Shown here: positions 1-9,424 of the stretch, piece after piece
Layout of the letters: each line of letters starts with the position of its first letter
Position numbering within the stretch: the first letter of the stretch is position 1
Assembly (NCBI GenBank): GCA_014685065.1
Contig: GCA_014685065.1_4092.2
Length of the DNA: 64,000 bases
Source of the DNA: a phage
Direction: 5' to 3' (one strand)
Notes under the pieces: generated by a model
Told to the model about the DNA's origin: nothing
The model's database searches: none
What the model saw: only the letters and a program-made list of their open reading frames with translations
Program-made: the position numbers and the translations under genes

Positions 1-9
1 TACAAAACA

Positions 10-252
10 TTGTTCAACCGAATGTACCCAAATCATCCAATTGTAGTTGTACTTTTGATTCTTTCAGTTTCTCAAATAATCGTTGAAACTACAATGGGTA
101 TCAGTAGTGTACATTATAGTTTTGGCACTATAGTAATTATTACTATGCTTATTGCATACATTTTAGTACTTGGATATGGTATCTTTGGTAATATTGGTAT
201 GAAAATGTATCATCGAATTAAAACATTACGTGATAATCTACCGGAGCGTTGA
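10..252 (+). CDS. small hydrophobic membrane protein with basic C-tail; frame open to window edge, may be 5'-truncated
   Basis: ORF track (TTG at 10, ATG at 22); hydrophobic runs; resembles 254..598 and the 6603..9383 family. Confidence 0.4.
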   Translation: MFNRMYPNHPIVVVLLILSVSQIIVETTMGISSVHYSFGTIVIITMLIAYILVLGYGIFGNIGMKMYHRIKTLRDNLPER

Positions 253-253
253 T

Positions 254-598
254 ATGTATAATTTGAACCTAATCTCATATATTATAACAACACTGTTTAC
301 ATTCTATGCCTTTGTTGGTATAATCCTACTGTACTTTAAATTTTATAAAGTGTTTAACCGTTTCTATCCTTCAATGGAGAATGAGTTTTTCTTTGTGTTG
401 TACGTATGTTACACATTAATGGCTACATGTTTCACTGTAGCCGATGGTGTCATCGGCATTAAAACTGCTTCCCCAAATGGTAGTACGCTGGTTGCATTTA
501 TTCTTACTGGATTCCTTGCAACTTATATTGCCTTCATTACAACATGGTCAGTGGTTGAATTTCTCTTGCGACTACGAAAGAATATGCCGAATCGATAG
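254..598 (+). CDS. small membrane protein paralog
   Basis: ATG at 254 one nt after previous stop; hydrophobic; C-terminal LRLRKNMPNR basic tail like 7282..7629. Confidence 0.5.
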   Translation: MYNLNLISYIITTLFTFYAFVGIILLYFKFYKVFNRFYPSMENEFFFVLYVCYTLMATCFTVADGVIGIKTASPNGSTLVAFILTGFLATYIAFITTWSVVEFLLRLRKNMPNR

Positions 599-607
599 GA
601 GACATAT

Positions 608-862
608 ATGTTTGCGTTGCGTAATAAAAACACTAAAGAATTATTATGTATTGATACCGTATGGGATTGTGCGGGATCAACTACAGTTCTTGAAGAAGGA
701 ACTGGATATTGCGTGTTTGTTGTACATGATAGGAATGAACTCGAATTATTACTTGCTGAGTTCAATGCTGGTGGTAATCCTAACTGTACTGAATACCCTG
801 AGATTATCAATCCAGCACCACCAGGCTCTTATGAAATTCTACAACTGTGGGAGTTGAAGTAA
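608..862 (+). CDS. hypothetical protein
   Basis: ORF track; SD-like GGAGA upstream. Confidence 0.5.
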   Translation: MFALRNKNTKELLCIDTVWDCAGSTTVLEEGTGYCVFVVHDRNELELLLAEFNAGGNPNCTEYPEIINPAPPGSYEILQLWELK

Positions 863-1242
863 TGCGTCAAATGCACAAAGTAACCGAGCTAAACAAGCGT
901 CTGGTTAAACAATCAATGTTCGAGGATAAAGAGTCTTATTATAACTTTAAACGTGCAGTAGAGGCTGCTATCCACATTCAGAAGCTTAAAGAACGTGGTT
1001 GTATTATTCTGGAAAATGGTTCGGAAGTTGTAACGGATGACTTTAGTGTAGCGTTTGATGTTTCACCTGACGGGACGCTATCAATGCCCCGCTTAGGAAC
1101 TGGAAACATGACTGTTTGGGTTGGCTTCACTATGGGGAATGTACCTGGTACTGTGTACGTAGATGATGCAGAATTGAAAGACAGTTTCAAAAACTTATCT
1201 TATCTTGAACCACAATACGCACATGAAATGAATTTATTTTGA
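862..1242 (+). CDS. hypothetical protein
   Basis: TAATG overlap with previous gene; ATG at 862 inside tracked ORF 847..1242. Confidence 0.55.
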   Translation: MRQMHKVTELNKRLVKQSMFEDKESYYNFKRAVEAAIHIQKLKERGCIILENGSEVVTDDFSVAFDVSPDGTLSMPRLGTGNMTVWVGFTMGNVPGTVYVDDAELKDSFKNLSYLEPQYAHEMNLF

Positions 1243-1243
1243 G

Positions 1244-1300
1244 TTGACAAACACATTCAGTACTGTATAATGCTTATCAAGGGGATGAACTTCTCATCCC
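1244..1300 (+). promoter_or_regulatory. sigma70-like promoter (TTGACA 1244-1249, TATAAT 1266-1271, 16-bp spacer) plus leader hairpin GGGATGA-N5-TCATCCC
   Basis: hexamers and inverted repeat read directly; precedes 1319 gene. Confidence 0.55.
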
Positions 1301-1318
1301 TACAATCGAGGAACTACC

Positions 1319-1873
1319 ATGATTACTTTTAAGAAAACTGCTAACCACATCCATGAAATCTACATTAACGGTCACAAAGCTGGCCTTCTTCGTTTACTCG
1401 CCCATCACCCTGATGCTACCGTATCTGATAATGAACCTAAAGATTGGCGTGTCTTTTTCTTTGGAAAGTACAGTGATTTTCAAGTATCAAACCTGAAGAA
1501 CATTCGTTCAGTATGCACGTTAACTGAAATTAAAGAAAAGTTAGCACAAGCATTGAAAACTAATCCAGATGGTGTTCTTCCACCTGATAACTTTGTAGAG
1601 AAAGGTTATGCCTTAGCTCATTTCAAAGATGGTACTATTCAATCTATCAGTACTGAATATGAATATCATTGGACTGAGTACTTCACTTATGGTTCGAGTA
1701 ATACATTGATGGATTCACGTAGTAAATTGGAAGAAGTACTGACTCGTATGAATGAACGCGAGCGTCAGTTATATGACAAACCAGAAATGTGGAGTTCAAC
1801 TTACATTGACCGTATTGACTATGTTATTATGACTCCAATCTTTGACACTGCTTACTATGATTCTTTGAAATAA
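1319..1873 (+). CDS. hypothetical protein (184 aa)
   Basis: ORF track; SD GAGGAA 8 nt upstream. Confidence 0.65.
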   Translation: MITFKKTANHIHEIYINGHKAGLLRLLAHHPDATVSDNEPKDWRVFFFGKYSDFQVSNLKNIRSVCTLTEIKEKLAQALKTNPDGVLPPDNFVEKGYALAHFKDGTIQSISTEYEYHWTEYFTYGSSNTLMDSRSKLEEVLTRMNERERQLYDKPEMWSSTYIDRIDYVIMTPIFDTAYYDSLK

Positions 1874-1884
1874 GGATAACTTAT

Positions 1885-2061
1885 ATGAAACTACGTACTC
1901 GTAATCGACTGATGGATGCACTGTACAATGAACAGCTTTCACTGAATGAAGTGAAGCGTCAGTTAATGTACACATATCAGTTTCCCGCTCGCATTGCAAA
2001 ACAACGTGCTAAAGAATTGCTGAAAGAAGCAATCGAGTACTGGGAATCTGATTCGTACTAA
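1885..2061 (+). CDS. small hypothetical protein (58 aa)
   Basis: hand-translated ORF below the track threshold; SD AAGGA upstream. Confidence 0.4.
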   Translation: MKLRTRNRLMDALYNEQLSLNEVKRQLMYTYQFPARIAKQRAKELLKEAIEYWESDSY

Positions 2062-2100
2062 TATTACGTGATATGTCACGTTAATTAAGTGAGGCGATAA

Positions 2101-2352
2101 ATGAAAATATTATTAGTTCTAATACTACTAATAGTTTTACCATTTACTTTAGTATCCCCTGGACTTGCATGGAATGTATTTGTGTACTTAGTATGTACTA
2201 TTGTAGTAAATGGTATCTTGTTCTTAGTTCTATTCATAAATGGAATAGGACACGGTGGAGGATGGACCAGTACTGCTGATATTGTACATAAAACCACTAT
2301 GTCTTTATTTGTAATGTGGAATTTATTCTGGACTTGGTTTGTGTTCTTCTAA
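2101..2352 (+). CDS. small membrane protein
   Basis: ORF track; SD GAGG; strongly hydrophobic. Confidence 0.5.
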   Translation: MKILLVLILLIVLPFTLVSPGLAWNVFVYLVCTIVVNGILFLVLFINGIGHGGGWTSTADIVHKTTMSLFVMWNLFWTWFVFF

Positions 2353-2360
2353 TTAAAAAT

Positions 2361-2732
2361 ATGAATATAGATTTGAAAGGTGCAACACGAACTGTTATCC
2401 TCATTGGGGAATATGCTATCAAGATTCCAACCTTTAAAAGTTGGAAGCTATTCTTAACAGGGATGATAGCTAACCTCAATGAACGTTCGTGGATGCAGTA
2501 CTCCAATCGTAGTGATAGTAGTATCTGTCCTACGTTGTGGTCATCATGTACTGGACTAGTAACTGTACAGAAACGTTGTAAGCCAGTTCAACATAGGGGT
2601 TTATTTTGGGTGGAGTTGTGTGCTTTAGCATTGAATTCAGAGTTAAGTACTGACTTCTTCTATTCAGATGCGAAGCCAGAAAACTTTGGGTATCTGGGTG
2701 GTAAGTTAGTTAAACTTGATTATGGAGATTAA
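2361..2732 (+). CDS. hypothetical protein
   Basis: internal ATG of tracked ORF 2316..2732 chosen to avoid overlap. Confidence 0.5.
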   Translation: MNIDLKGATRTVILIGEYAIKIPTFKSWKLFLTGMIANLNERSWMQYSNRSDSSICPTLWSSCTGLVTVQKRCKPVQHRGLFWVELCALALNSELSTDFFYSDAKPENFGYLGGKLVKLDYGD

Positions 2733-2733
2733 T

Positions 2734-3003
2734 ATGTACGCACTGTATAATAAAGAAAAGAAACGATTTGCTAAGGTTGAAATTTCGATTGATACATTTG
2801 ATATGTTGGAGTACTGTATTGTAACTGACCTATATGCTAACTTGTATTACGTTCTTGATGACGTATCAGTACTGCAACGATTGCTTGAGAATTCCAAAAG
2901 TCAATGCCAGGGCATCCATGATGGTTCATCTTATGAAACACCTGAGTGTTCCTACGGCTATCTGGACGGGTATGAGATTGTGAAGTTGGGGATCATTGAA
3001 TAA
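2734..3003 (+). CDS. hypothetical protein
   Basis: ATG at 2734 adjacent to previous stop. Confidence 0.5.
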   Translation: MYALYNKEKKRFAKVEISIDTFDMLEYCIVTDLYANLYYVLDDVSVLQRLLENSKSQCQGIHDGSSYETPECSYGYLDGYEIVKLGIIE

Positions 3004-3009
3004 AGAAAA

Positions 3010-3042
3010 GGGTTGACTTCGGTCAGCCCTTTTTGCTATAAT
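3010..3042 (+). terminator. terminator hairpin GGGTTGAC-TTCG-GTCAGCCC + T5 whose arm and tail also spell TTGACT-N18-TATAAT (dual terminator/promoter element, copy 1)
   Basis: read directly; one G-U wobble in stem; UUCG loop. Confidence 0.6.
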
Positions 3043-3070
3043 TATTTCATCAAGACGAGAGGATGAATAC

Positions 3071-3586
3071 ATGACACGCATTAACTTAGTACACGTTAAA
3101 GAACTTGCTGACCAACATCTGATGGCTGAATATCGTGAACTCCCACGTGTATTTGGTGCTGTACAAAAACACGTTCAAGCACGTAAGCGTGTACGTGATT
3201 TCAAAATTAACAGTACTTATCTGTTAGGTTCAGGTCATGTGACATTCTTTTACGACAAGTTGCTGTACTTACAGAAGCGTCATATCGATATTGTTAACGA
3301 ATGTTTGCGTCGTGGTATGAAGATTCAAAACACTGAAGTAAACGACATTAGCGGCTTCCCTGCTGAGTTTTGTAATGACTACGTACCAACGGAGTCAGAG
3401 ATTAAAATGTCTCGTGATCGTTTGATTGAGAAGCTCCAGATGAAGCCTACGTGGTATAAGTTTACTGATGTTGAATGTCCACAGTACGTTAAAGATATGC
3501 AGAACGTAAGTAGTAAGAACGAATCTAGTACTGATATGTTCGACGAAATTGAAGAACAAATCAAAGATGAAATGAATAATTATTAA
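3071..3586 (+). CDS. denV: pyrimidine-dimer DNA glycosylase / endonuclease V
   Basis: N-terminal ~130 aa align with T4 DenV as I recall it ([50 protein letters not shown]); extra acidic C-tail. Confidence 0.85.
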
Positions 3587-3624
3587 AGGAAAGGGTTGAC
3601 TTCGGTTACACAAAGGAACATAAC

Positions 3625-3819
3625 ATGTTATTAGTATATTCAAAGCGTTTCTGGATTTCTTTTATTGTACTATCGCTAATCGGCTTCGGTTTGAGTATAC
3701 TCTTTTCGTGGGATGAATTGGGTACATGGTATTATGAAGTCCCGTGGTACATGAAGATAGCTCCTTGTTATGCGGCATTGTTCGTGTCATTCCTTATTGT
3801 TGTCTTCAGCGAGGATTAG
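3625..3819 (+). CDS. small membrane protein
   Basis: ORF track; hydrophobic. Confidence 0.45.
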   Translation: MLLVYSKRFWISFIVLSLIGFGLSILFSWDELGTWYYEVPWYMKIAPCYAALFVSFLIVVFSED

Positions 3820-3870
3820 TTGATGTAGTATGTGCTACACCAAAGTATTTGGATATTTTAGATATAAACA

Positions 3871-3899
3871 TTGACACCTGTTCTATCTTTCTGTATTAT
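3871..3899 (+). promoter_or_regulatory. sigma70-like promoter TTGACA-N17-TATTAT
   Basis: read directly; precedes 3926 gene. Confidence 0.5.
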
Positions 3900-3925
3900 G
3901 TACATCACCAAATGAGGAATACAAC

Positions 3926-4285
3926 ATGGCATCTTTAAGTGAAATCGCAGAATACAACCCACTAACAATCTCAACAATTCAACGTACAAAAACTTTTTAT
4001 TTCCGTCCTGCTGATGGATGGAAACGTGGAATGAATGGTGACTATCGAGTACTGGAAGATTCACTAATCGAGCGTATCAACTCTGAACTACAGAAGTATG
4101 AAGGTGTTAAAGTTGTGCGTTCAACTTCTCGTTATTTTGAGTACTACATTGAGTCTTCAACTGTAAATGAAAACTCATCATTCTCGGTGGACAACACTGA
4201 TATTCTTCGTAATGCTGTTGGTCTTTTATGCAGGATTGCAGAAGAAATTGGATTAACTATCACCACAATGAGTGAGTTAGAATAA
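3926..4285 (+). CDS. hypothetical protein
   Basis: ORF track; SD GAGGAA. Confidence 0.6.
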   Translation: MASLSEIAEYNPLTISTIQRTKTFYFRPADGWKRGMNGDYRVLEDSLIERINSELQKYEGVKVVRSTSRYFEYYIESSTVNENSSFSVDNTDILRNAVGLLCRIAEEIGLTITTMSELE

Positions 4286-4291
4286 CATAAA

Positions 4292-4324
4292 GGGTTGACT
4301 TCGGTCAGCCCTTTTTGCTATAAT
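4292..4324 (+). terminator. terminator/promoter dual element, copy 2
   Basis: GGGTTGACTTCGGTCAGCCCTTTTTGCTATAAT. Confidence 0.6.
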
Positions 4325-4350
4325 TATTTCATCAACACAAGAGGTAACAA

Positions 4351-4587
4351 ATGAAACTATCTTTTATACGATTAGCTGAATTCTTCGGTACTGATGTAAT
4401 TACTTTACAACAAATTGCAGATAATACTTCATTAAGTACACAAGAAGTACTTGACTTAGATGTAATTCAGTGCGATAATACTTCCATCGATTTCAAAGAA
4501 GGTCTTGTCGAAAAAGATAAGATTAAAGCTAAGATTAATGGTGCTGGGCGGGTTCAGTACTGGAAAGGAGTATTAAGTAATGTTTGA
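4351..4587 (+). CDS. hypothetical protein
   Basis: ORF track; SD GAGG. Confidence 0.5.
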   Translation: MKLSFIRLAEFFGTDVITLQQIADNTSLSTQEVLDLDVIQCDNTSIDFKEGLVEKDKIKAKINGAGRVQYWKGVLSNV

Positions 4588-5698
4588 ACAGTATTATTTA
4601 AATGAAGATGGTGAAAAAGTTTATTTTCATGAAGAACTTGGTATGCGTTTTGAATGGATGAAGCCTGAAGATATAAAAAGGGTTTCAAAAGGACTCACTG
4701 CTAAGGATCATGTTGATGACATAGAAGCAAAATTAAAAAACAAAGATATTGACAATATTACTATTATTGGATTATCAGTTAAATCATCACGTGAGTTTGG
4801 TAAAAACGGAAATAGTAATAACAATTTACTGATTATGTATAATGGGGTATTGTATGATAATTATAAAATAACTGGTTTAAAAACAAAGCTTGAAAAAATA
4901 ACAAACAATAAATTCAAGCCATCATTTACCTATACAGATGAAAATTATTATTACTATGTAACCAAATTGGGTTCTCTTGAGGAAAGAGGATGCTATATAT
5001 ATGAAAATGAACATTTAGACAATGGGATAATGTCATATATTAAATTCACATATTCCGATGGATTTACACAACCACGAAGAATAAATGATATAATTACAAA
5101 AACATCAATGAACGTTAGATATTTTATAACACCTGAAATGCGTGAAACAATTGCTAACACACGCTGTAATGAACTAGGATATACATTAAAAGAAGTTTAC
5201 AAGAAATCAAATGGTCGTTATTATGTAAAATATATATGTGATAAAGGACACGAGTGTAATCAAGACTATTATGCGTTTACTAGTAAACAAGCACAAAAGT
5301 GTGGATGCTGTTCCCAATTAGAAACACACTCATTTGGTCATAATGATTGTAAAGAGTTTTTGAGAGGAATGTTTGTTACTGAAAGAGAGAAAACATTTCC
5401 TGATTTAAAAAATAAATCAAAACTTCCATATGATTTTTATATTCGTGATATTAATACGTTATTTGAATATGATGGTAGTAATCACTTTGAAGAACGTGAA
5501 TCAGGATGGGGAAACGGACTTATGAGGAAAAAACACGATAAAATCAAAACAGAATACGCAATAAAAAATGGATATAACTTCATTCGTATTGCGTATTATG
5601 AAGACCATATTGGAGCATTGAAATCTTTCCTTAAACTCATTGAAGAGAATCCAGGAAAGCAAATCGTGCAGATCTATGGTGAAGTACAAATTATCTAA
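4580..5698 (+). CDS. putative endonuclease with C-terminal Vsr/DUF559-like PD-(D/E)XK domain and Cys/His cluster; very AT-rich
   Basis: motifs PYDFYI..LFEYDGSNHFE..RKKHDKIKTEYAIKNGYNFIRI; CDKGHEC..CGCC; SD GGAAAGGAG. Confidence 0.55.
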   Translation: MFEQYYLNEDGEKVYFHEELGMRFEWMKPEDIKRVSKGLTAKDHVDDIEAKLKNKDIDNITIIGLSVKSSREFGKNGNSNNNLLIMYNGVLYDNYKITGLKTKLEKITNNKFKPSFTYTDENYYYYVTKLGSLEERGCYIYENEHLDNGIMSYIKFTYSDGFTQPRRINDIITKTSMNVRYFITPEMRETIANTRCNELGYTLKEVYKKSNGRYYVKYICDKGHECNQDYYAFTSKQAQKCGCCSQLETHSFGHNDCKEFLRGMFVTEREKTFPDLKNKSKLPYDFYIRDINTLFEYDGSNHFEERESGWGNGLMRKKHDKIKTEYAIKNGYNFIRIAYYEDHIGALKSFLKLIEENPGKQIVQIYGEVQII

Positions 5699-5705
5699 AA
5701 CAAAA

Positions 5706-5738
5706 GGGTTGACTTCGGTCAGCCCTTTTTGCTATAAT
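5706..5738 (+). terminator. terminator/promoter dual element, copy 3
   Basis: GGGTTGACTTCGGTCAGCCCTTTTTGCTATAAT. Confidence 0.6.
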
Positions 5739-5766
5739 CATTTCATCAACTGAAGAGGGTAAAGAA

Positions 5767-6537
5767 ATGACCAGAGAAGCACGCAGCATTCAAATTCAGA
5801 AAAACTTCAACTCCATGATGGTTGCTCTTGAGTGTTTGCTCGATGATAGCAGTACTGTAAAAAGTATGGTTGTCAGTGGTGCTCCTGGTGTTGGTAAGAC
5901 TTACACCTTGTCCCAACGTCTCCAGAAGGCTCATGACGCAGCAGAATGGAACGTAGCTACTATCAGTGGTAAGATGACTACACTGGCTCTGTACGAAGTT
6001 CTGTACAAGAATCGTCACAGCACCAACGTGTTAGTACTGGATGATATGGACAGCATCTTTGATTCTGAAGACGGTATGAACCTGCTCAAAGCTGTTTTGG
6101 ATAGTGGTAAGCGTACTGTATCTTATATGACTAGCTCTAAGTACTTGAGCACTAACGGCATTCCTAATAGCTTTGATTTTAATGGTCGCATCGTATTCAT
6201 TACTAACAAAGATTTAGCGTTAGATGCTAAAGCTAAAACTAAAATGTCTGCTCATTATGCTGCTCTTATGTCTCGTTCTGTGTACGTGGATTTACAGATT
6301 CAGACTAAAAGTGATATCATGATTCATATTGAAAATGTAATGACTAAGACTAATATTCTTGCATCTAAAGGTGTTAACAGTAACGGTAGTAAAGCAATTC
6401 TGAATTGGATGTTGAAGCACGAAGATTCTCTTCGTTCACCTTCACTGCGTATGCCACTGTTGATTTCGGCAGTATATAACAACAACCCATACGATTGGGA
6501 AGAACAGTGCGAAAACTTGTTCCTTGAAAAAATTTAA
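5767..6537 (+). CDS. P-loop NTPase (AAA-like ATPase)
   Basis: Walker A GAPGVGKT, Walker B VLVLDDMD. Confidence 0.7.
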   Translation: MTREARSIQIQKNFNSMMVALECLLDDSSTVKSMVVSGAPGVGKTYTLSQRLQKAHDAAEWNVATISGKMTTLALYEVLYKNRHSTNVLVLDDMDSIFDSEDGMNLLKAVLDSGKRTVSYMTSSKYLSTNGIPNSFDFNGRIVFITNKDLALDAKAKTKMSAHYAALMSRSVYVDLQIQTKSDIMIHIENVMTKTNILASKGVNSNGSKAILNWMLKHEDSLRSPSLRMPLLISAVYNNNPYDWEEQCENLFLEKI

Positions 6538-6602
6538 TTCAATATTGACAGTACTAACAATGTGTAGTACTATAACAAAAGTTTAATCACTGGAGACACC
6601 CA

Positions 6603-6944
6603 ATGCGTGAGTTTTTTGAATCTAATATAATGCTTGGTATTACACTGATATACATGTTTGTATTCTTGTTTTATCATTCAATTGTAATTAGTCTTTGGTA
6701 TTTTAAAAGGAAAGTTGTTTTTAAATTGTATTCGTATGATAATGTATTCTTAGTTGTATATAGCATTATACAAGGTGGGTTTATTTTATTTGGTGTGATG
6801 ACATATGTGATTTACATGTTACAAATTGATAACACACCACACATTACACAATATGTTGTGTTTTCAGGACTAATCGTCTGGTTATTGGTGTGTACTATGT
6901 ACTTTATTATTAAAGCTCGTAATAACTTTAAATGGGGATTCTAA
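6603..6944 (+). CDS. small membrane protein paralog
   Basis: ORF track; near-duplicate of 6944..7282. Confidence 0.55.
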   Translation: MREFFESNIMLGITLIYMFVFLFYHSIVISLWYFKRKVVFKLYSYDNVFLVVYSIIQGGFILFGVMTYVIYMLQIDNTPHITQYVVFSGLIVWLLVCTMYFIIKARNNFKWGF

Positions 6945-7282
6945 TGTTAGAATTTTTTAAATCAGATACAATGATTAGTATTACTTTGATTTATCTGTTT
7001 GGTTTTTTCTTTTATCATGCACTAGTTGTAGTACTATGGTATTTTAAAAAGAAAATTGTTTTTAAACTGTATCCAGTGAGGAATTCATCACTAGTTCTTT
7101 ACACACTTGTTCAAGGTTTGTTTGCAATTGTTGGTCTTATGGCACACTTAATTTATTGTGCTAATCCTCACTTGAACTCAATCTCACAATATATTGTATT
7201 CTTTGGGTTGTTCATTTGGTTAGTTGTATACTTAATCCATCTCATTATTCATGGTAGAGATAAAATTCGCGGAGACTTCTAA
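6944..7282 (+). CDS. small membrane protein paralog
   Basis: TAATG overlap; WYFKKKIVFKLY motif shared with 6603 gene. Confidence 0.55.
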   Translation: MLEFFKSDTMISITLIYLFGFFFYHALVVVLWYFKKKIVFKLYPVRNSSLVLYTLVQGLFAIVGLMAHLIYCANPHLNSISQYIVFFGLFIWLVVYLIHLIIHGRDKIRGDF

Positions 7283-7629
7283 TGTTTGAAGCTTATCTTG
7301 AGTTTTTAAGGAGTAGTCCAGTTGCACATTCACTTGCAGGGATTATTCTAACAACTTATGTATCATTTTGGGTAGTTATGTTTCTAGGATGGTATTTTAA
7401 ACGACAATTCTATAAACGTAATGGTGAAGATTTTATGAATTCTGTCATTAATCAATCGTTGTTTGCATCAACATTGATTGCATGTATTGTAGCAACACTC
7501 ACAGGAAAGGTACTACCAGCTTTTTCCGCAGTTTACGGCACACTTGGGATGATATGTTTAACTTTTATATTGACCATTAAAATTTGTTGTGTTATGATTG
7601 AACTTCGAAATAAGATACCGGAGGAATGA
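7282..7629 (+). CDS. small membrane protein paralog
   Basis: TAATG overlap; hydrophobic; WYFKRQ motif. Confidence 0.5.
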   Translation: MFEAYLEFLRSSPVAHSLAGIILTTYVSFWVVMFLGWYFKRQFYKRNGEDFMNSVINQSLFASTLIACIVATLTGKVLPAFSAVYGTLGMICLTFILTIKICCVMIELRNKIPEE

Positions 7630-7964
7630 TGGAGTACTTTATTGATTTACTGCCGTGGTATATGAAAGTTAGTACTTTGTACTATATTATTAGTGCTGGA
7701 TTCTACTTTCTGATGTGGTTCTTCAAACGACCAATTTCAGTATTCATCGCTGATAACATGCTGCAATTAAAATTACACGCATGGTTTGGTATGGCGATGA
7801 TTATGCCTATTATTCACTACTCAATGATTAGTAGAGGTTTCCGTTCTAATGGTGAACCAATTGTATTAGTATTCTATTGGGGTTCAACTATTGCATATGT
7901 AAGTTTGTTGTTGTTCCCAGTCGTTCATAAATTACGTGCTAAAGTTCCTGATGCGAGGTACTAA
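7626..7964 (+). CDS. small membrane protein paralog
   Basis: ATGATG overlap; hydrophobic; WFFKRP motif. Confidence 0.5.
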   Translation: MMEYFIDLLPWYMKVSTLYYIISAGFYFLMWFFKRPISVFIADNMLQLKLHAWFGMAMIMPIIHYSMISRGFRSNGEPIVLVFYWGSTIAYVSLLLFPVVHKLRAKVPDARY

Positions 7965-8278
7965 TGGATATCGTAACATTGATTTACACGTTGTATTCAT
8001 TCTATTTCATTATGTGTTGGGTTGGATTTTTATTTGTACTGAAGATGTTTGATTATGTTGAAAAACAGATAAAAGAATTTTGTATTCCTTTTATTGGGTC
8101 AACCATTATTAGTATTACTTGTTTGTATTATTTGGTATGTGATCCACCTGATAATACAGCAATGATTGACTTGATGTTACTACCAACAACTGTTACTTTT
8201 TTATGTAGTCTGATGCCGCCGATTAGCCGTGGACTAACAGAATTTAGACGCAATCAAAAGCGTAAACGAGGGATGTAA
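7964..8278 (+). CDS. small membrane protein paralog
   Basis: TAATG overlap; hydrophobic. Confidence 0.5.
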   Translation: MDIVTLIYTLYSFYFIMCWVGFLFVLKMFDYVEKQIKEFCIPFIGSTIISITCLYYLVCDPPDNTAMIDLMLLPTTVTFLCSLMPPISRGLTEFRRNQKRKRGM

Positions 8279-8646
8279 TGGAAATTGCTCTTATTATCTT
8301 AACTGCTATGCTGTTTATTAGTACTGTGGTTATAATTGGTAAATTCTTTTGTGTATCATTTTTAGAAACGGTATACGATGAAATTGCTGATGATTATGAA
8401 TTACAAGCCGGATTTTTCATTACGTATTGGCTTAGTTTATTTTGTCTAGTCATTGCTTGGATTTTACATATCTTTAAATGGGGTATGGTAGACGGTGATC
8501 CTATTATGGCAATTATTGTTCTAGTGTTTGGTATCCTTGGTGGTGCAGTGCATAATCTAATGGTTATCTGGCAAACTGTTCAATATGTTTTGGTTCCCTA
8601 TTTCGAAAAGATGCACAGTACAATTAAAAAACGTAAACGAGGTTAG
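8278..8646 (+). CDS. small membrane protein paralog
   Basis: TAATG overlap; hydrophobic. Confidence 0.5.
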   Translation: MEIALIILTAMLFISTVVIIGKFFCVSFLETVYDEIADDYELQAGFFITYWLSLFCLVIAWILHIFKWGMVDGDPIMAIIVLVFGILGGAVHNLMVIWQTVQYVLVPYFEKMHSTIKKRKRG

Positions 8647-8647
8647 T

Positions 8648-9010
8648 ATGAACGGGATAGAATTATCTTTCGTTGGTCAATTACTAGTAATGGCGTATAC
8701 ATTTATCTTCTCACTGAATGCATTCGTGTGCATTGGGAAGTACTTCCATAAGCGACCATTATCAAATATATATGATGTAATCCAAAAGAGATATAGTCCA
8801 GCATATACTGTGTTGGGTACAGTATTCAATTTTGGTTTTATTGTATTAATAATTGGACTGTTCACATCCTCTTTGAATACAATAACCTTCGGTCTTATGA
8901 TATGTTCATTGGTATTAGCCGTAATTATATGTTGTTTAGTACTGCACCTTGTGGTACTATTGTATATAAAGATCTCTGAAATCCACCAACGTTTGGGTAT
9001 GAGGAAATAA
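8648..9010 (+). CDS. small membrane protein paralog
   Basis: ATG at 8648 after previous stop; hydrophobic. Confidence 0.5.
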   Translation: MNGIELSFVGQLLVMAYTFIFSLNAFVCIGKYFHKRPLSNIYDVIQKRYSPAYTVLGTVFNFGFIVLIIGLFTSSLNTITFGLMICSLVLAVIICCLVLHLVVLLYIKISEIHQRLGMRK

Positions 9011-9011
9011 T

Positions 9012-9383
9012 ATGAGTTACCGTGAGATATTTTCCATTATTTCAATTATTATGTTCAGTACTGGAACACTGGTATGGTTATTATACTTCTTCTGTATTAA
9101 TCCAGTGTATAATATGTTATGTAATATTAAATCAAGTGCCGGATATATCACTTTTATGGTCTTTATGGGATATTATTGTCTAAGCATTTTAGGTGTTGTT
9201 TTGGTTGTTATATTTGATGTGGGACCAAATAGTGATGGTATGGAAATACATGAATTAATAACCATGTTTGGATGTATGATACCAACAGCACTACTGTTTG
9301 TAGCTACTGGTAGTGGATTGATAAAATTATATAATTATTTAAAATCCATTCATAATTCCATTCATAATAAGCGTATGTCATAA
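9012..9383 (+). CDS. small membrane protein paralog
   Basis: ORF track; hydrophobic. Confidence 0.5.
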   Translation: MSYREIFSIISIIMFSTGTLVWLLYFFCINPVYNMLCNIKSSAGYITFMVFMGYYCLSILGVVLVVIFDVGPNSDGMEIHELITMFGCMIPTALLFVATGSGLIKLYNYLKSIHNSIHNKRMS

Positions 9384-9424
9384 TAAAAATCCAGTACTTA
9401 ATAGTACTGGATGTATAAGGAGTT

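Follow-up and report, generated by a model that had tools for sequence, protein, structure and literature searches.

Tandem arrays of small three-helix inner-membrane protein paralogs in RaK2-like jumbo phages and their possible role in phage conflict

A 64,000-nucleotide stretch of phage DNA (GenBank assembly GCA_014685065.1, contig GCA_014685065.1_4092.2; hereafter the window) was analysed to characterise an array of eight consecutive, tightly packed plus-strand genes (g1–g8, positions 6603–9383) and the related genes at its left end. The window comes from an Asteriusvirus jumbo coliphage, with 99.6% identity to phages vB_EcoM_G17 (G17) and Sharanji and 98% identity to phage 121Q. The array genes belong to a family of small inner-membrane proteins (100–125 aa) with three transmembrane (TM) helices that had not been characterised before and is specific to the clade of RaK2-like jumbo phages; this assignment is well supported. 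At least seven groups of "hypothetical" proteins that had been filed apart are thereby united in a single family with one architecture and an early operon. A function in conflict with competing phages or host defences is possible.

The genome encodes 11 family members in two clusters, three behind a T7-like protein kinase gene and eight behind a gene for a NrdC.10-like ATPase. Gene starts for g1–g8 were taken from the near-identical G17 record; a window coordinate corresponds to the coordinate on G17 locus L001 minus 2001. An earlier reading of the sequence alone had described ten small membrane-protein paralogs of 80–140 aa, eight in the array and two at positions 10–598. Their paralogy was borne out by leave-one-out profiles and profile–profile alignment, with the total raised to 11 for the genome. 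The two upstream genes fared differently: gB (254–598) is complete, and the open reading frame (ORF) at 10–252 is the 80-aa C-terminal part of gA, a gene truncated at the edge of the window. The full-length counterpart of gA, G17_00105, occupies L001 1912–2253 and starts 89 nt before the window edge, and the gene does not begin with the TTG at position 10. The third member of this cluster (G17_00106) lies further upstream, outside the window and behind the T7-like kinase gene. Actual protein sizes are 104–123 aa, the wider range given before being due to the truncation of gA and to an over-long start at 8585. Among the 103 ORFs of at least 80 aa in the window, only the family genes and two antisense shadow ORFs encode three TM helices, and the clustering is therefore not a matter of chance.

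The evidence for a single family comes mainly from profile comparisons. Pairwise identity is 47% between g1 and g2, 23% between gA and gB, and 15–25% for the rest, so that the description of the first two genes as near duplicates was overstated. When one group at a time was left out of the hidden Markov model (HMM), the omitted members scored 15–35 bits and the reversed sequences no more than 9 bits in all groups but g5; g4 stood at 14.7 bits and g5, the exception, at 2.8 bits. Per-position profiles, grouped as the upstream cluster (u), g1/g2 (g12), and the remaining genes by position, were joined by hhalign into one graph of eight groups with expectation (E) values from 1e-8 to 6e-5. The corresponding hhalign probabilities were 94% for u–g12, 92% for u–g3, 96% for g3–g4 (over 24 columns), 80% for g12–g3, 73% for u–g8, 73% for g5–g6, and 90% each for g6–g7 and g6–g8. 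The g5 profile entered the graph through g6 over its full length (E 3e-5), and the best of 56 reversed-profile controls reached a probability of 2.5% with an E of 0.019. Likewise, an iterated HMM picked the array members alone across seven loci. Two subfamilies can be distinguished by their motifs: type I, composed of the upstream cluster and g1–g4, carries WYFK[RK] and LRxKIP[ED], and type II, composed of g6–g8, carries GKFFCV and [MF]HxxIxxKRxG. The g5 protein is intermediate between them, and its orthologues P0047 and RaK2 ORF313 have retained the family motifs. In the PHROG database, the members are distributed over seven separate function-less families (19454, 19046, 27396, 33258, 26405, 27618, and 19285) with weak cross-matches, such as the full-length cross-match of gB to PHROG 19285 (E 3e-4).

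Regarding protein architecture, Kyte–Doolittle scans gave three TM helices in every member, rather than the two to four proposed earlier, with the lowest hydropathic strength in g4. The hydrophobic character and net-basic C-tails noted at that time were confirmed for all members, and the topology prediction suggested as a check returned three TM helices with an N-out/C-in orientation, in line with membrane proteins. Summed over nine proteins, the N-terminus, loop 1, loop 2, and the C-tail contain 5, 28, 4, and 37 lysine and arginine residues, respectively, and the N-termini are acidic, a pattern that indicates the N-out/C-in orientation by the positive-inside rule. AlphaFold2 models were obtained for g3 (mean predicted local distance difference test score, pLDDT, 78.7; helices 2–11, 13–38, 42–52, 55–75, and 83–110) and g6 (mean pLDDT 90.6; helices 2–23, 27–38, 40–65, and 76–121). 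Both show the same order of TM1, a short cytoplasmic helix, TM2, a short loop, and TM3 extending into a basic C-terminal helix. The predicted layout accordingly places the short acidic N-terminus and loop 2 in the periplasm and the basic C-terminal helix in the cytoplasm. Two motifs are shared across the family: an invariant Phe within an aromatic-Phe-(Lys/Cys/Arg) context (W-[YF]-F-[KC]) at the cytoplasmic end of TM1, and [LIFM]-[RH]-x-x-[IL] in the C-terminal basic helix. The g5 protein retains the Phe column and the C-terminal motif and has lost the aromatic/Lys context. Within orthologue groups, variability is lowest in the N-terminus, TM1, and loop 1 (0.9–1.0 bits) and highest in TM2, loop 2, and TM3 (1.2–1.4 bits).

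Searches against public collections showed a narrow distribution. The Pfam, NCBIfam, and PADLOC profile libraries gave sub-threshold noise only; ten members had no Pfam match at E up to 1, the Imm family PF14373 included, and the PADLOC models matched none of 42 family members. The best hit of the PDB profile search had an E of 0.43, and fold searches returned no match. Among 1.84 billion representatives, a word-indexed search recovered 30 proteins and a full HMM search 22; all of those with contig information or examined contigs lie in jumbo-phage genomes or contigs of approximately 300–350 kb, and the two distant HMM matches whose contigs were examined were both in jumbo-phage contigs. The members of Klebsiella phage RaK2 and Salmonella phage Munch fell below the threshold of the deep HMM search and were recovered only through synteny. 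By synteny, arrays of about 10 members were located in Erwinia phage Hallingskeid and in a 324-kb metagenome contig, together with 8 + 4 members in JNE01-type coliphages, ORF309–316 in RaK2, and about 4 + 1 members in Munch. In each distant relative, the NrdC.10-like ATPase gene precedes the array and the members retain the motifs. JNE01/L006 shows the genes in the order g(1/2)-g3-g4-g5-g6-g7-g8, which is also recognisable in RaK2, and the succession of type I, g5-like, and type II genes is kept in RaK2, Hallingskeid, and the 324-kb contig. RaK2 ORF309–316 and 121Q gp224–232 plus gp208–209 (gp207 lying immediately before the window) are these genes themselves or their direct orthologues, arranged behind the ATPase gene in an unchanged order; public records hold these proteins as separate unannotated families and do not state the relation of one family with two subfamilies. 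A term search of the literature on Sharanji, CBB, RaK2, and phAPEC6 and of a comparative overview of jumbo phages found no description of the array genes, and the array proteins are absent from the phAPEC6 virion proteome as far as its entries gp003–gp010 and then gp035c are concerned.

Some observations concern the relatives of the array. The arrays of RaK2, Hallingskeid, Munch, and the metagenome contig contain a gene for a highly conserved soluble peptide of 42–44 aa (MKPEQWIIxDMRxMR...YLxLLxWYVKV), at 6576–6704 of L014 (RaK2), 8457–8585 of L003, 12769–12903 of L005, and 7281–7409 of L015. It is unannotated in RaK2 and was not found in the window; its C-terminal part shows a faint likeness to the N-terminus of g4 (E 0.2), possibly by chance. 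In the upstream cluster region of Hallingskeid (L003 1634–1909), a 91-aa membrane protein is annotated as a "superinfection immunity protein"; it has no Pfam match, falls outside the family, and is absent from the window. The notes "Phi92_gp231" and "Phi92_gp233" in the annotation of phage ph0011 were considered and set aside as spurious, because phi92 gp231 and gp233 are unrelated small proteins.

Five of the seven junctions within g1–g8 overlap by one base (TAATG in four, TGATG in one), and the other two have a one-base spacer. The junctions had been described as TAATG or ATGATG overlaps, of which the four TAATG cases stand; ATGATG represents an optional start of g4 at 7626. Every start is preceded by a GGAG/GAGG Shine–Dalgarno sequence buried in the last codons of the preceding gene, and part of the shared Gly, Glu, and Arg content of the C-tails is explained by this embedded ribosome-binding site of the next gene. 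That g1–g8 are translated as a tightly coupled string is well supported. Upstream, a 33-nt element (GGGTTGACTTCGGTCAGCCCTTTTTGCTATAAT) combines a terminator hairpin holding the −35 hexamer with an extended −10, matching 11 of 12 positions of an extended −10 promoter. It occurs in three identical copies in the window (3010–3042, 4292–4324, and 5706–5738), which precede denV, a 78-aa gene, and the ATPase gene, respectively, and RaK2, Munch, and Hallingskeid carry variants of it ahead of the ATPase gene. Within Asteriusvirus, the internal promoter before g1 is retained in EcMJ, ph0011, and the divergent JNE01 allele. The conservation of these elements supports transcription by the host polymerase early in infection, and the consensus matches support an eight-gene array that would be transcribed early from host sigma-70-type promoters. 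The hairpin closing the array, which in this window has its T-run on the minus strand and only a weak one on the plus strand, is kept in JNE01 with differences in the stem sequence, and the ATPase gene and the array form one terminator-bounded unit. The coordinates of these features are collected in Table 1.

Table 1. Family genes, promoter elements, and associated features in the window.
Feature	Position	Strand	Description
u2 (gA), 3' part	1..252	+	orthologue of G17_00105 (113 aa); family HMM match
u3 (gB)	254..598	+	114 aa, 3 TM, complete; C-tail ..LRLRKNMPNR
Terminator hairpin and promoter element, 33 nt	5706..5738	+	embedded −35 TTGACT, 18-nt spacer with TGn, −10 TATAAT; putative early promoter of the operon of ATPase and array
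P-loop/AAA ATPase, T4 NrdC.10 homologue	5767..6537	+	256 aa; immediately precedes the array, and is predicted to be co-transcribed with it, in all lineages examined
Internal sigma-70-like promoter (consensus match)	6545..6573	+	TTGACA, 17 nt, TACTAT; within the 58-nt gap that precedes g1
g1	6603..6944	+	113 aa, type I, accessory copy; PHROG 19454
g2	6944..7282	+	112 aa, type I; 47% identity to g1
g3	7282..7629	+	115 aa, type I; ..GWYFKRQ.. and ..ELRNKIPEE
g4	7629..7964	+	111 aa, type I
g5	7964..8278	+	104 aa, most divergent member; ..CWVGFLF.., ..EFRRNQKRKRGM
g6	8278..8646	+	122 aa, type II; ..IGKFFCV.., ..KMHSTIKKRKRG
g7	8648..9010	+	120 aa, type II; start 8648, not 8585
g8	9012..9383	+	123 aa, type II; final gene of the array
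Array-closing G+C-poor hairpin	9389..9412	.	TCCAGTACT..AGTACTGGA; terminator-like

Class I holins (lambda S type) are proteins of approximately 100–120 aa with three TM helices, an N-out/C-in topology, and a basic charged C-terminus. The array proteins resemble them in size, in their three TM helices, in the predicted N-out/C-in orientation, and in their basic C-terminus, and the possible ATGATG double start of g4 would also suit a holin. A function as holins, antiholins, or other lysis-timing proteins, also raised by the sequence-only reading, was weighed on this basis. The publication on the related phage CBB mentions no holin (PMC5259590), a further point in favour; it describes a membrane-anchored (signal-arrest-release-like) endolysin with homologues in 121Q, GAP32, and RaK2 (PMC5259590). 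However, the array differs from class I holins in its early-type promoters of the sigma-70 class, identical to that of denV, in its many copies (5–12 per genome), and in the lack of sequence matches to holin families in Pfam, NCBIfam, or PHROG. Neither an endolysin nor a spanin gene was found nearby, the 121Q endolysin homologue is gp532 and the array gp224–232, and hypervariability is atypical of lysis cassettes. Topology being its sole fit, a lysis-timing role is disfavoured and we regard it as highly improbable.

The evolutionary analysis revealed both constraint and extensive exchange of alleles, with the loci standing out as hot spots of diversity. The ratio of nonsynonymous to synonymous substitution rates (dN/dS) was 0.1–0.4 in most comparisons of close genomes, with one value of 0.74, indicating that the array genes are constrained. 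Between G17 and JNE01, which belong to the same genus, protein identity is 88–97% for flanking genes, 77–97% for the genes between the two clusters, 23–25% for the upstream 3-TM cluster, 59% for the ATPase, 30–52% for the array, 32% for a 220-aa gene, and 26–39% for the adjacent RCC1-like virion genes (one at 89%, a partial alignment). For g8, the JNE01 allele (39.5% identity) is about as distant from the window as the RaK2 copy (38.8%). The ATPase alleles of Asteriusvirus fall into two classes, with 97–100% and 58–59% identity to the window, and in several B-class genomes the nucleotide matches begin at about window position 6319, inside the 3' end of the ATPase gene. Alleles assort gene by gene, and those of the ATPase are independent of those of the array. 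For instance, percent identities to the window for ATPase/g3/g6/g8 are 59/98/100/100 in CRJP21, 97/30/37/37 in A4, 97/90/84/63 in EcMJ, and 58/84/73/85 in ph0011. In the comparison of the window with SHEFM2K, dS is 0.25, 0.03, 0.22, 0.10, and 0.14 for g1–g5 and 0.01–0.03 for g6–g8; such jumps between adjacent genes of one genome pair indicate a recombination mosaic. Copy number varies as well. The g1 gene shows presence/absence polymorphism among genomes at least 96% identical and is absent from genomes of the PBECO4/phAPEC6/slurp01/EcMJ type, g5 is duplicated in JNE01, and the number of members after the ATPase gene is about 4 in Munch, 7 or 8 in Asteriusvirus, and about 9–11 in Hallingskeid and locus L005. 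The Salmonella SD-* records were considered as evidence of array gene loss and not used, as their neighbouring genes are fragmented too: SD-1_S14 and SD-6_S16 (L008 and L009) carry many small deletions and broken genes throughout the region, including the ATPase and endonuclease genes, which looks like assembly error rather than biology.

These patterns bear on the main rival explanation, according to which the paralogs are subunits of a single hetero-oligomeric inner-membrane assembly (a ring, channel, or anchoring platform), possibly together with the NrdC.10-like ATPase, with translational coupling setting the stoichiometry. The one-base overlap or spacer at all seven junctions, the gene order conserved across genera, the constant position of the ATPase gene directly upstream and in the same terminator-bounded unit, and the cytoplasm-facing motifs common to all members would suit such a complex. 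It is weakened by the variable number of members, by the dispensability of g1 among near-identical genomes, and by the replacement of alleles of single genes without concomitant change in the adjacent genes or the ATPase, which sits uneasily with co-adapted subunits. Further members form a second cluster elsewhere, beside the kinase gene, and tight overlaps are common in unrelated early genes of the same region. A link of NrdC.10 to such arrays in T-even phages was also looked for and rejected, NrdC.10 of phage JS98 being without 3-TM neighbours; the occurrence of NrdC.10 in T-even phages with no such neighbours also counts against the complex. Overall, we consider a single complex unlikely.

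Early expression, membrane location, variable copy number, and deep alleles exchanged gene by gene suggest, when taken together, that the paralogs act separately against variable partners. We therefore infer a function in conflict, and our leading interpretation, held tentatively and with somewhat less than even confidence, is that these early inner-membrane proteins either exclude superinfecting phages at the step of DNA entry or neutralise membrane-acting defences. Each paralog would act on its own at the host inner membrane, where it could block the genome entry of competing phages at the DNA-translocation step or, alternatively, disarm membrane-acting effectors of host defence. The conserved cytoplasm-facing motifs might act as a scaffold or insertion signal common to all members, target specificity might reside in the more variable TM2-loop-TM3 part, and recombination would shuffle alleles among co-circulating phages. 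A role of the superinfection-exclusion type, like that of Imm, SieA, and HK97 gp15, is compatible with the early-type promoters, the predicted inner-membrane N-out/C-in topology, the allelic diversity, and the mosaicism. A bolder version, which we find rather doubtful, is a modular "membrane immunity" battery in which each 3-TM paralog gatekeeps one class of incoming DNA-delivery apparatus or membrane-acting host defence. Cassettes would then be traded by recombination, like receptor-binding proteins, with the cytoplasmic motifs as shared scaffold and TM2-loop-TM3 as specificity module.

Known excluders offer points of comparison. Imm and Sp of T4, a related virulent myovirus, are small early inner-membrane superinfection-exclusion proteins with two TM helices and one TM helix, respectively. 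The array proteins resemble them in being small, early, and located in the inner membrane, as far as can be predicted, and T4 shares replication and repair genes with this phage (denV and NrdC.10 homology). In contrast, the array proteins do not match the Imm family PF14373, have three TM helices, and occur as eleven paralogs, whereas T4 has one copy of each gene. The P22 protein SieA is a proven inner-membrane excluder whose sequence types are less than 30% identical among related phages and whose proposed target is the conduit that delivers the incoming DNA (PMC10883804). Compared by description only, SieA and the array proteins are both phage-encoded, located in the inner membrane (by prediction in our case), and split into highly divergent sequence types; they differ in that SieA is encoded by one prophage-expressed gene and the family by a multi-copy array in a virulent jumbo phage.

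Several findings weigh against a conflict function. No homology to exclusion or counter-defence proteins was found for any member, nor any experimental link. The promoter calls are consensus matches and not transcripts, gene-wide positive selection was not found (omega below 1 in all comparisons), and about twenty phage records share g6–g8 at 100% identity. The predicted periplasmic exposure is tiny, with an N-tail of 2–17 aa and a loop of 7–18 aa. In addition, the paralogs are ancient and their order has been conserved since before the split of RaK2 and Asteriusvirus, so that non-redundant housekeeping roles or the subunits of one assembly fit this feature as well as conflict does. Hypervariability also extends to the RCC1-like virion genes next to the array and to the ATPase gene, and the diversity could therefore reflect a regional recombination hot spot instead of selection on the array genes. 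The RCC1-like genes form a convergent array of beta-propeller paralogs from window position 10545 onward on the minus strand (L001 12546–20201). Proteins of this type, annotated as "DNA condensation protein", appear among the entries seen of the phAPEC6 virion proteome, and for that reason they may be variable proteins of the virion or of host interaction whose variation accompanies that of the membrane array.

Another explanation is that the family comprises host-takeover factors directed at conserved inner-membrane machinery (transporters, respiration, division, or insertases), which would reprogramme host physiology rather than fight competitors. The early-type expression signals, the takeover-type neighbours (the T7-like protein kinase, denV, and the NrdC.10-like ATPase), the purifying selection, and the ancient and stably ordered paralog set are all consistent with it. 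However, conserved E. coli targets would not explain alleles only 30–50% identical within a genus, gene-wise replacement, or the presence/absence polymorphism, and we judge this explanation improbable, on a par with the single complex.

The possible consequences differ among these readings. Most jumbo-phage genes have no known role, and the family combines a distinctive evolutionary pattern (ancient ordered paralogs with alleles exchanged within a genus) with a compact size that makes it cheap to test. If the proteins are excluders or counter-defence factors, they would help to explain competition among co-circulating Asteriusvirus phages and would provide natural specificity variants for studying the passage of phage DNA through the inner membrane. 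The battery model, if true, would represent a new mechanism, at the level of a protein family, by which virulent giant phages compete with other phages. If the paralogs form one complex instead, it would be an unknown membrane machine built by the phage.

Other genes of the window were also inspected. Between the two clusters, two small membrane proteins with two TM helices each are encoded at 2101–2352 (83 aa) and 3625–3819 (64 aa); they are unrelated to the family and 95% and 92% identical, respectively, between G17 and JNE01. The 372-aa protein encoded at 4580–5698 has a counterpart on a related contig that matches Pfam DUF723, and it is annotated as an HNH endonuclease in other records. 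Both its length and its sequence differ from genome to genome, so that it may represent a mobile endonuclease next to the variable module. Finally, a second tandem paralog family is located at 60858–63896 on the plus strand and is unrelated to the 3-TM family (HMM E 0.1–0.25). It consists of seven consecutive acidic and apparently soluble proteins of 119–163 aa, with ..ELFQE/ALVFDKK.. common to the first three and the motifs ..EEYYFQQ.. and ..WYFK.. to the last four.

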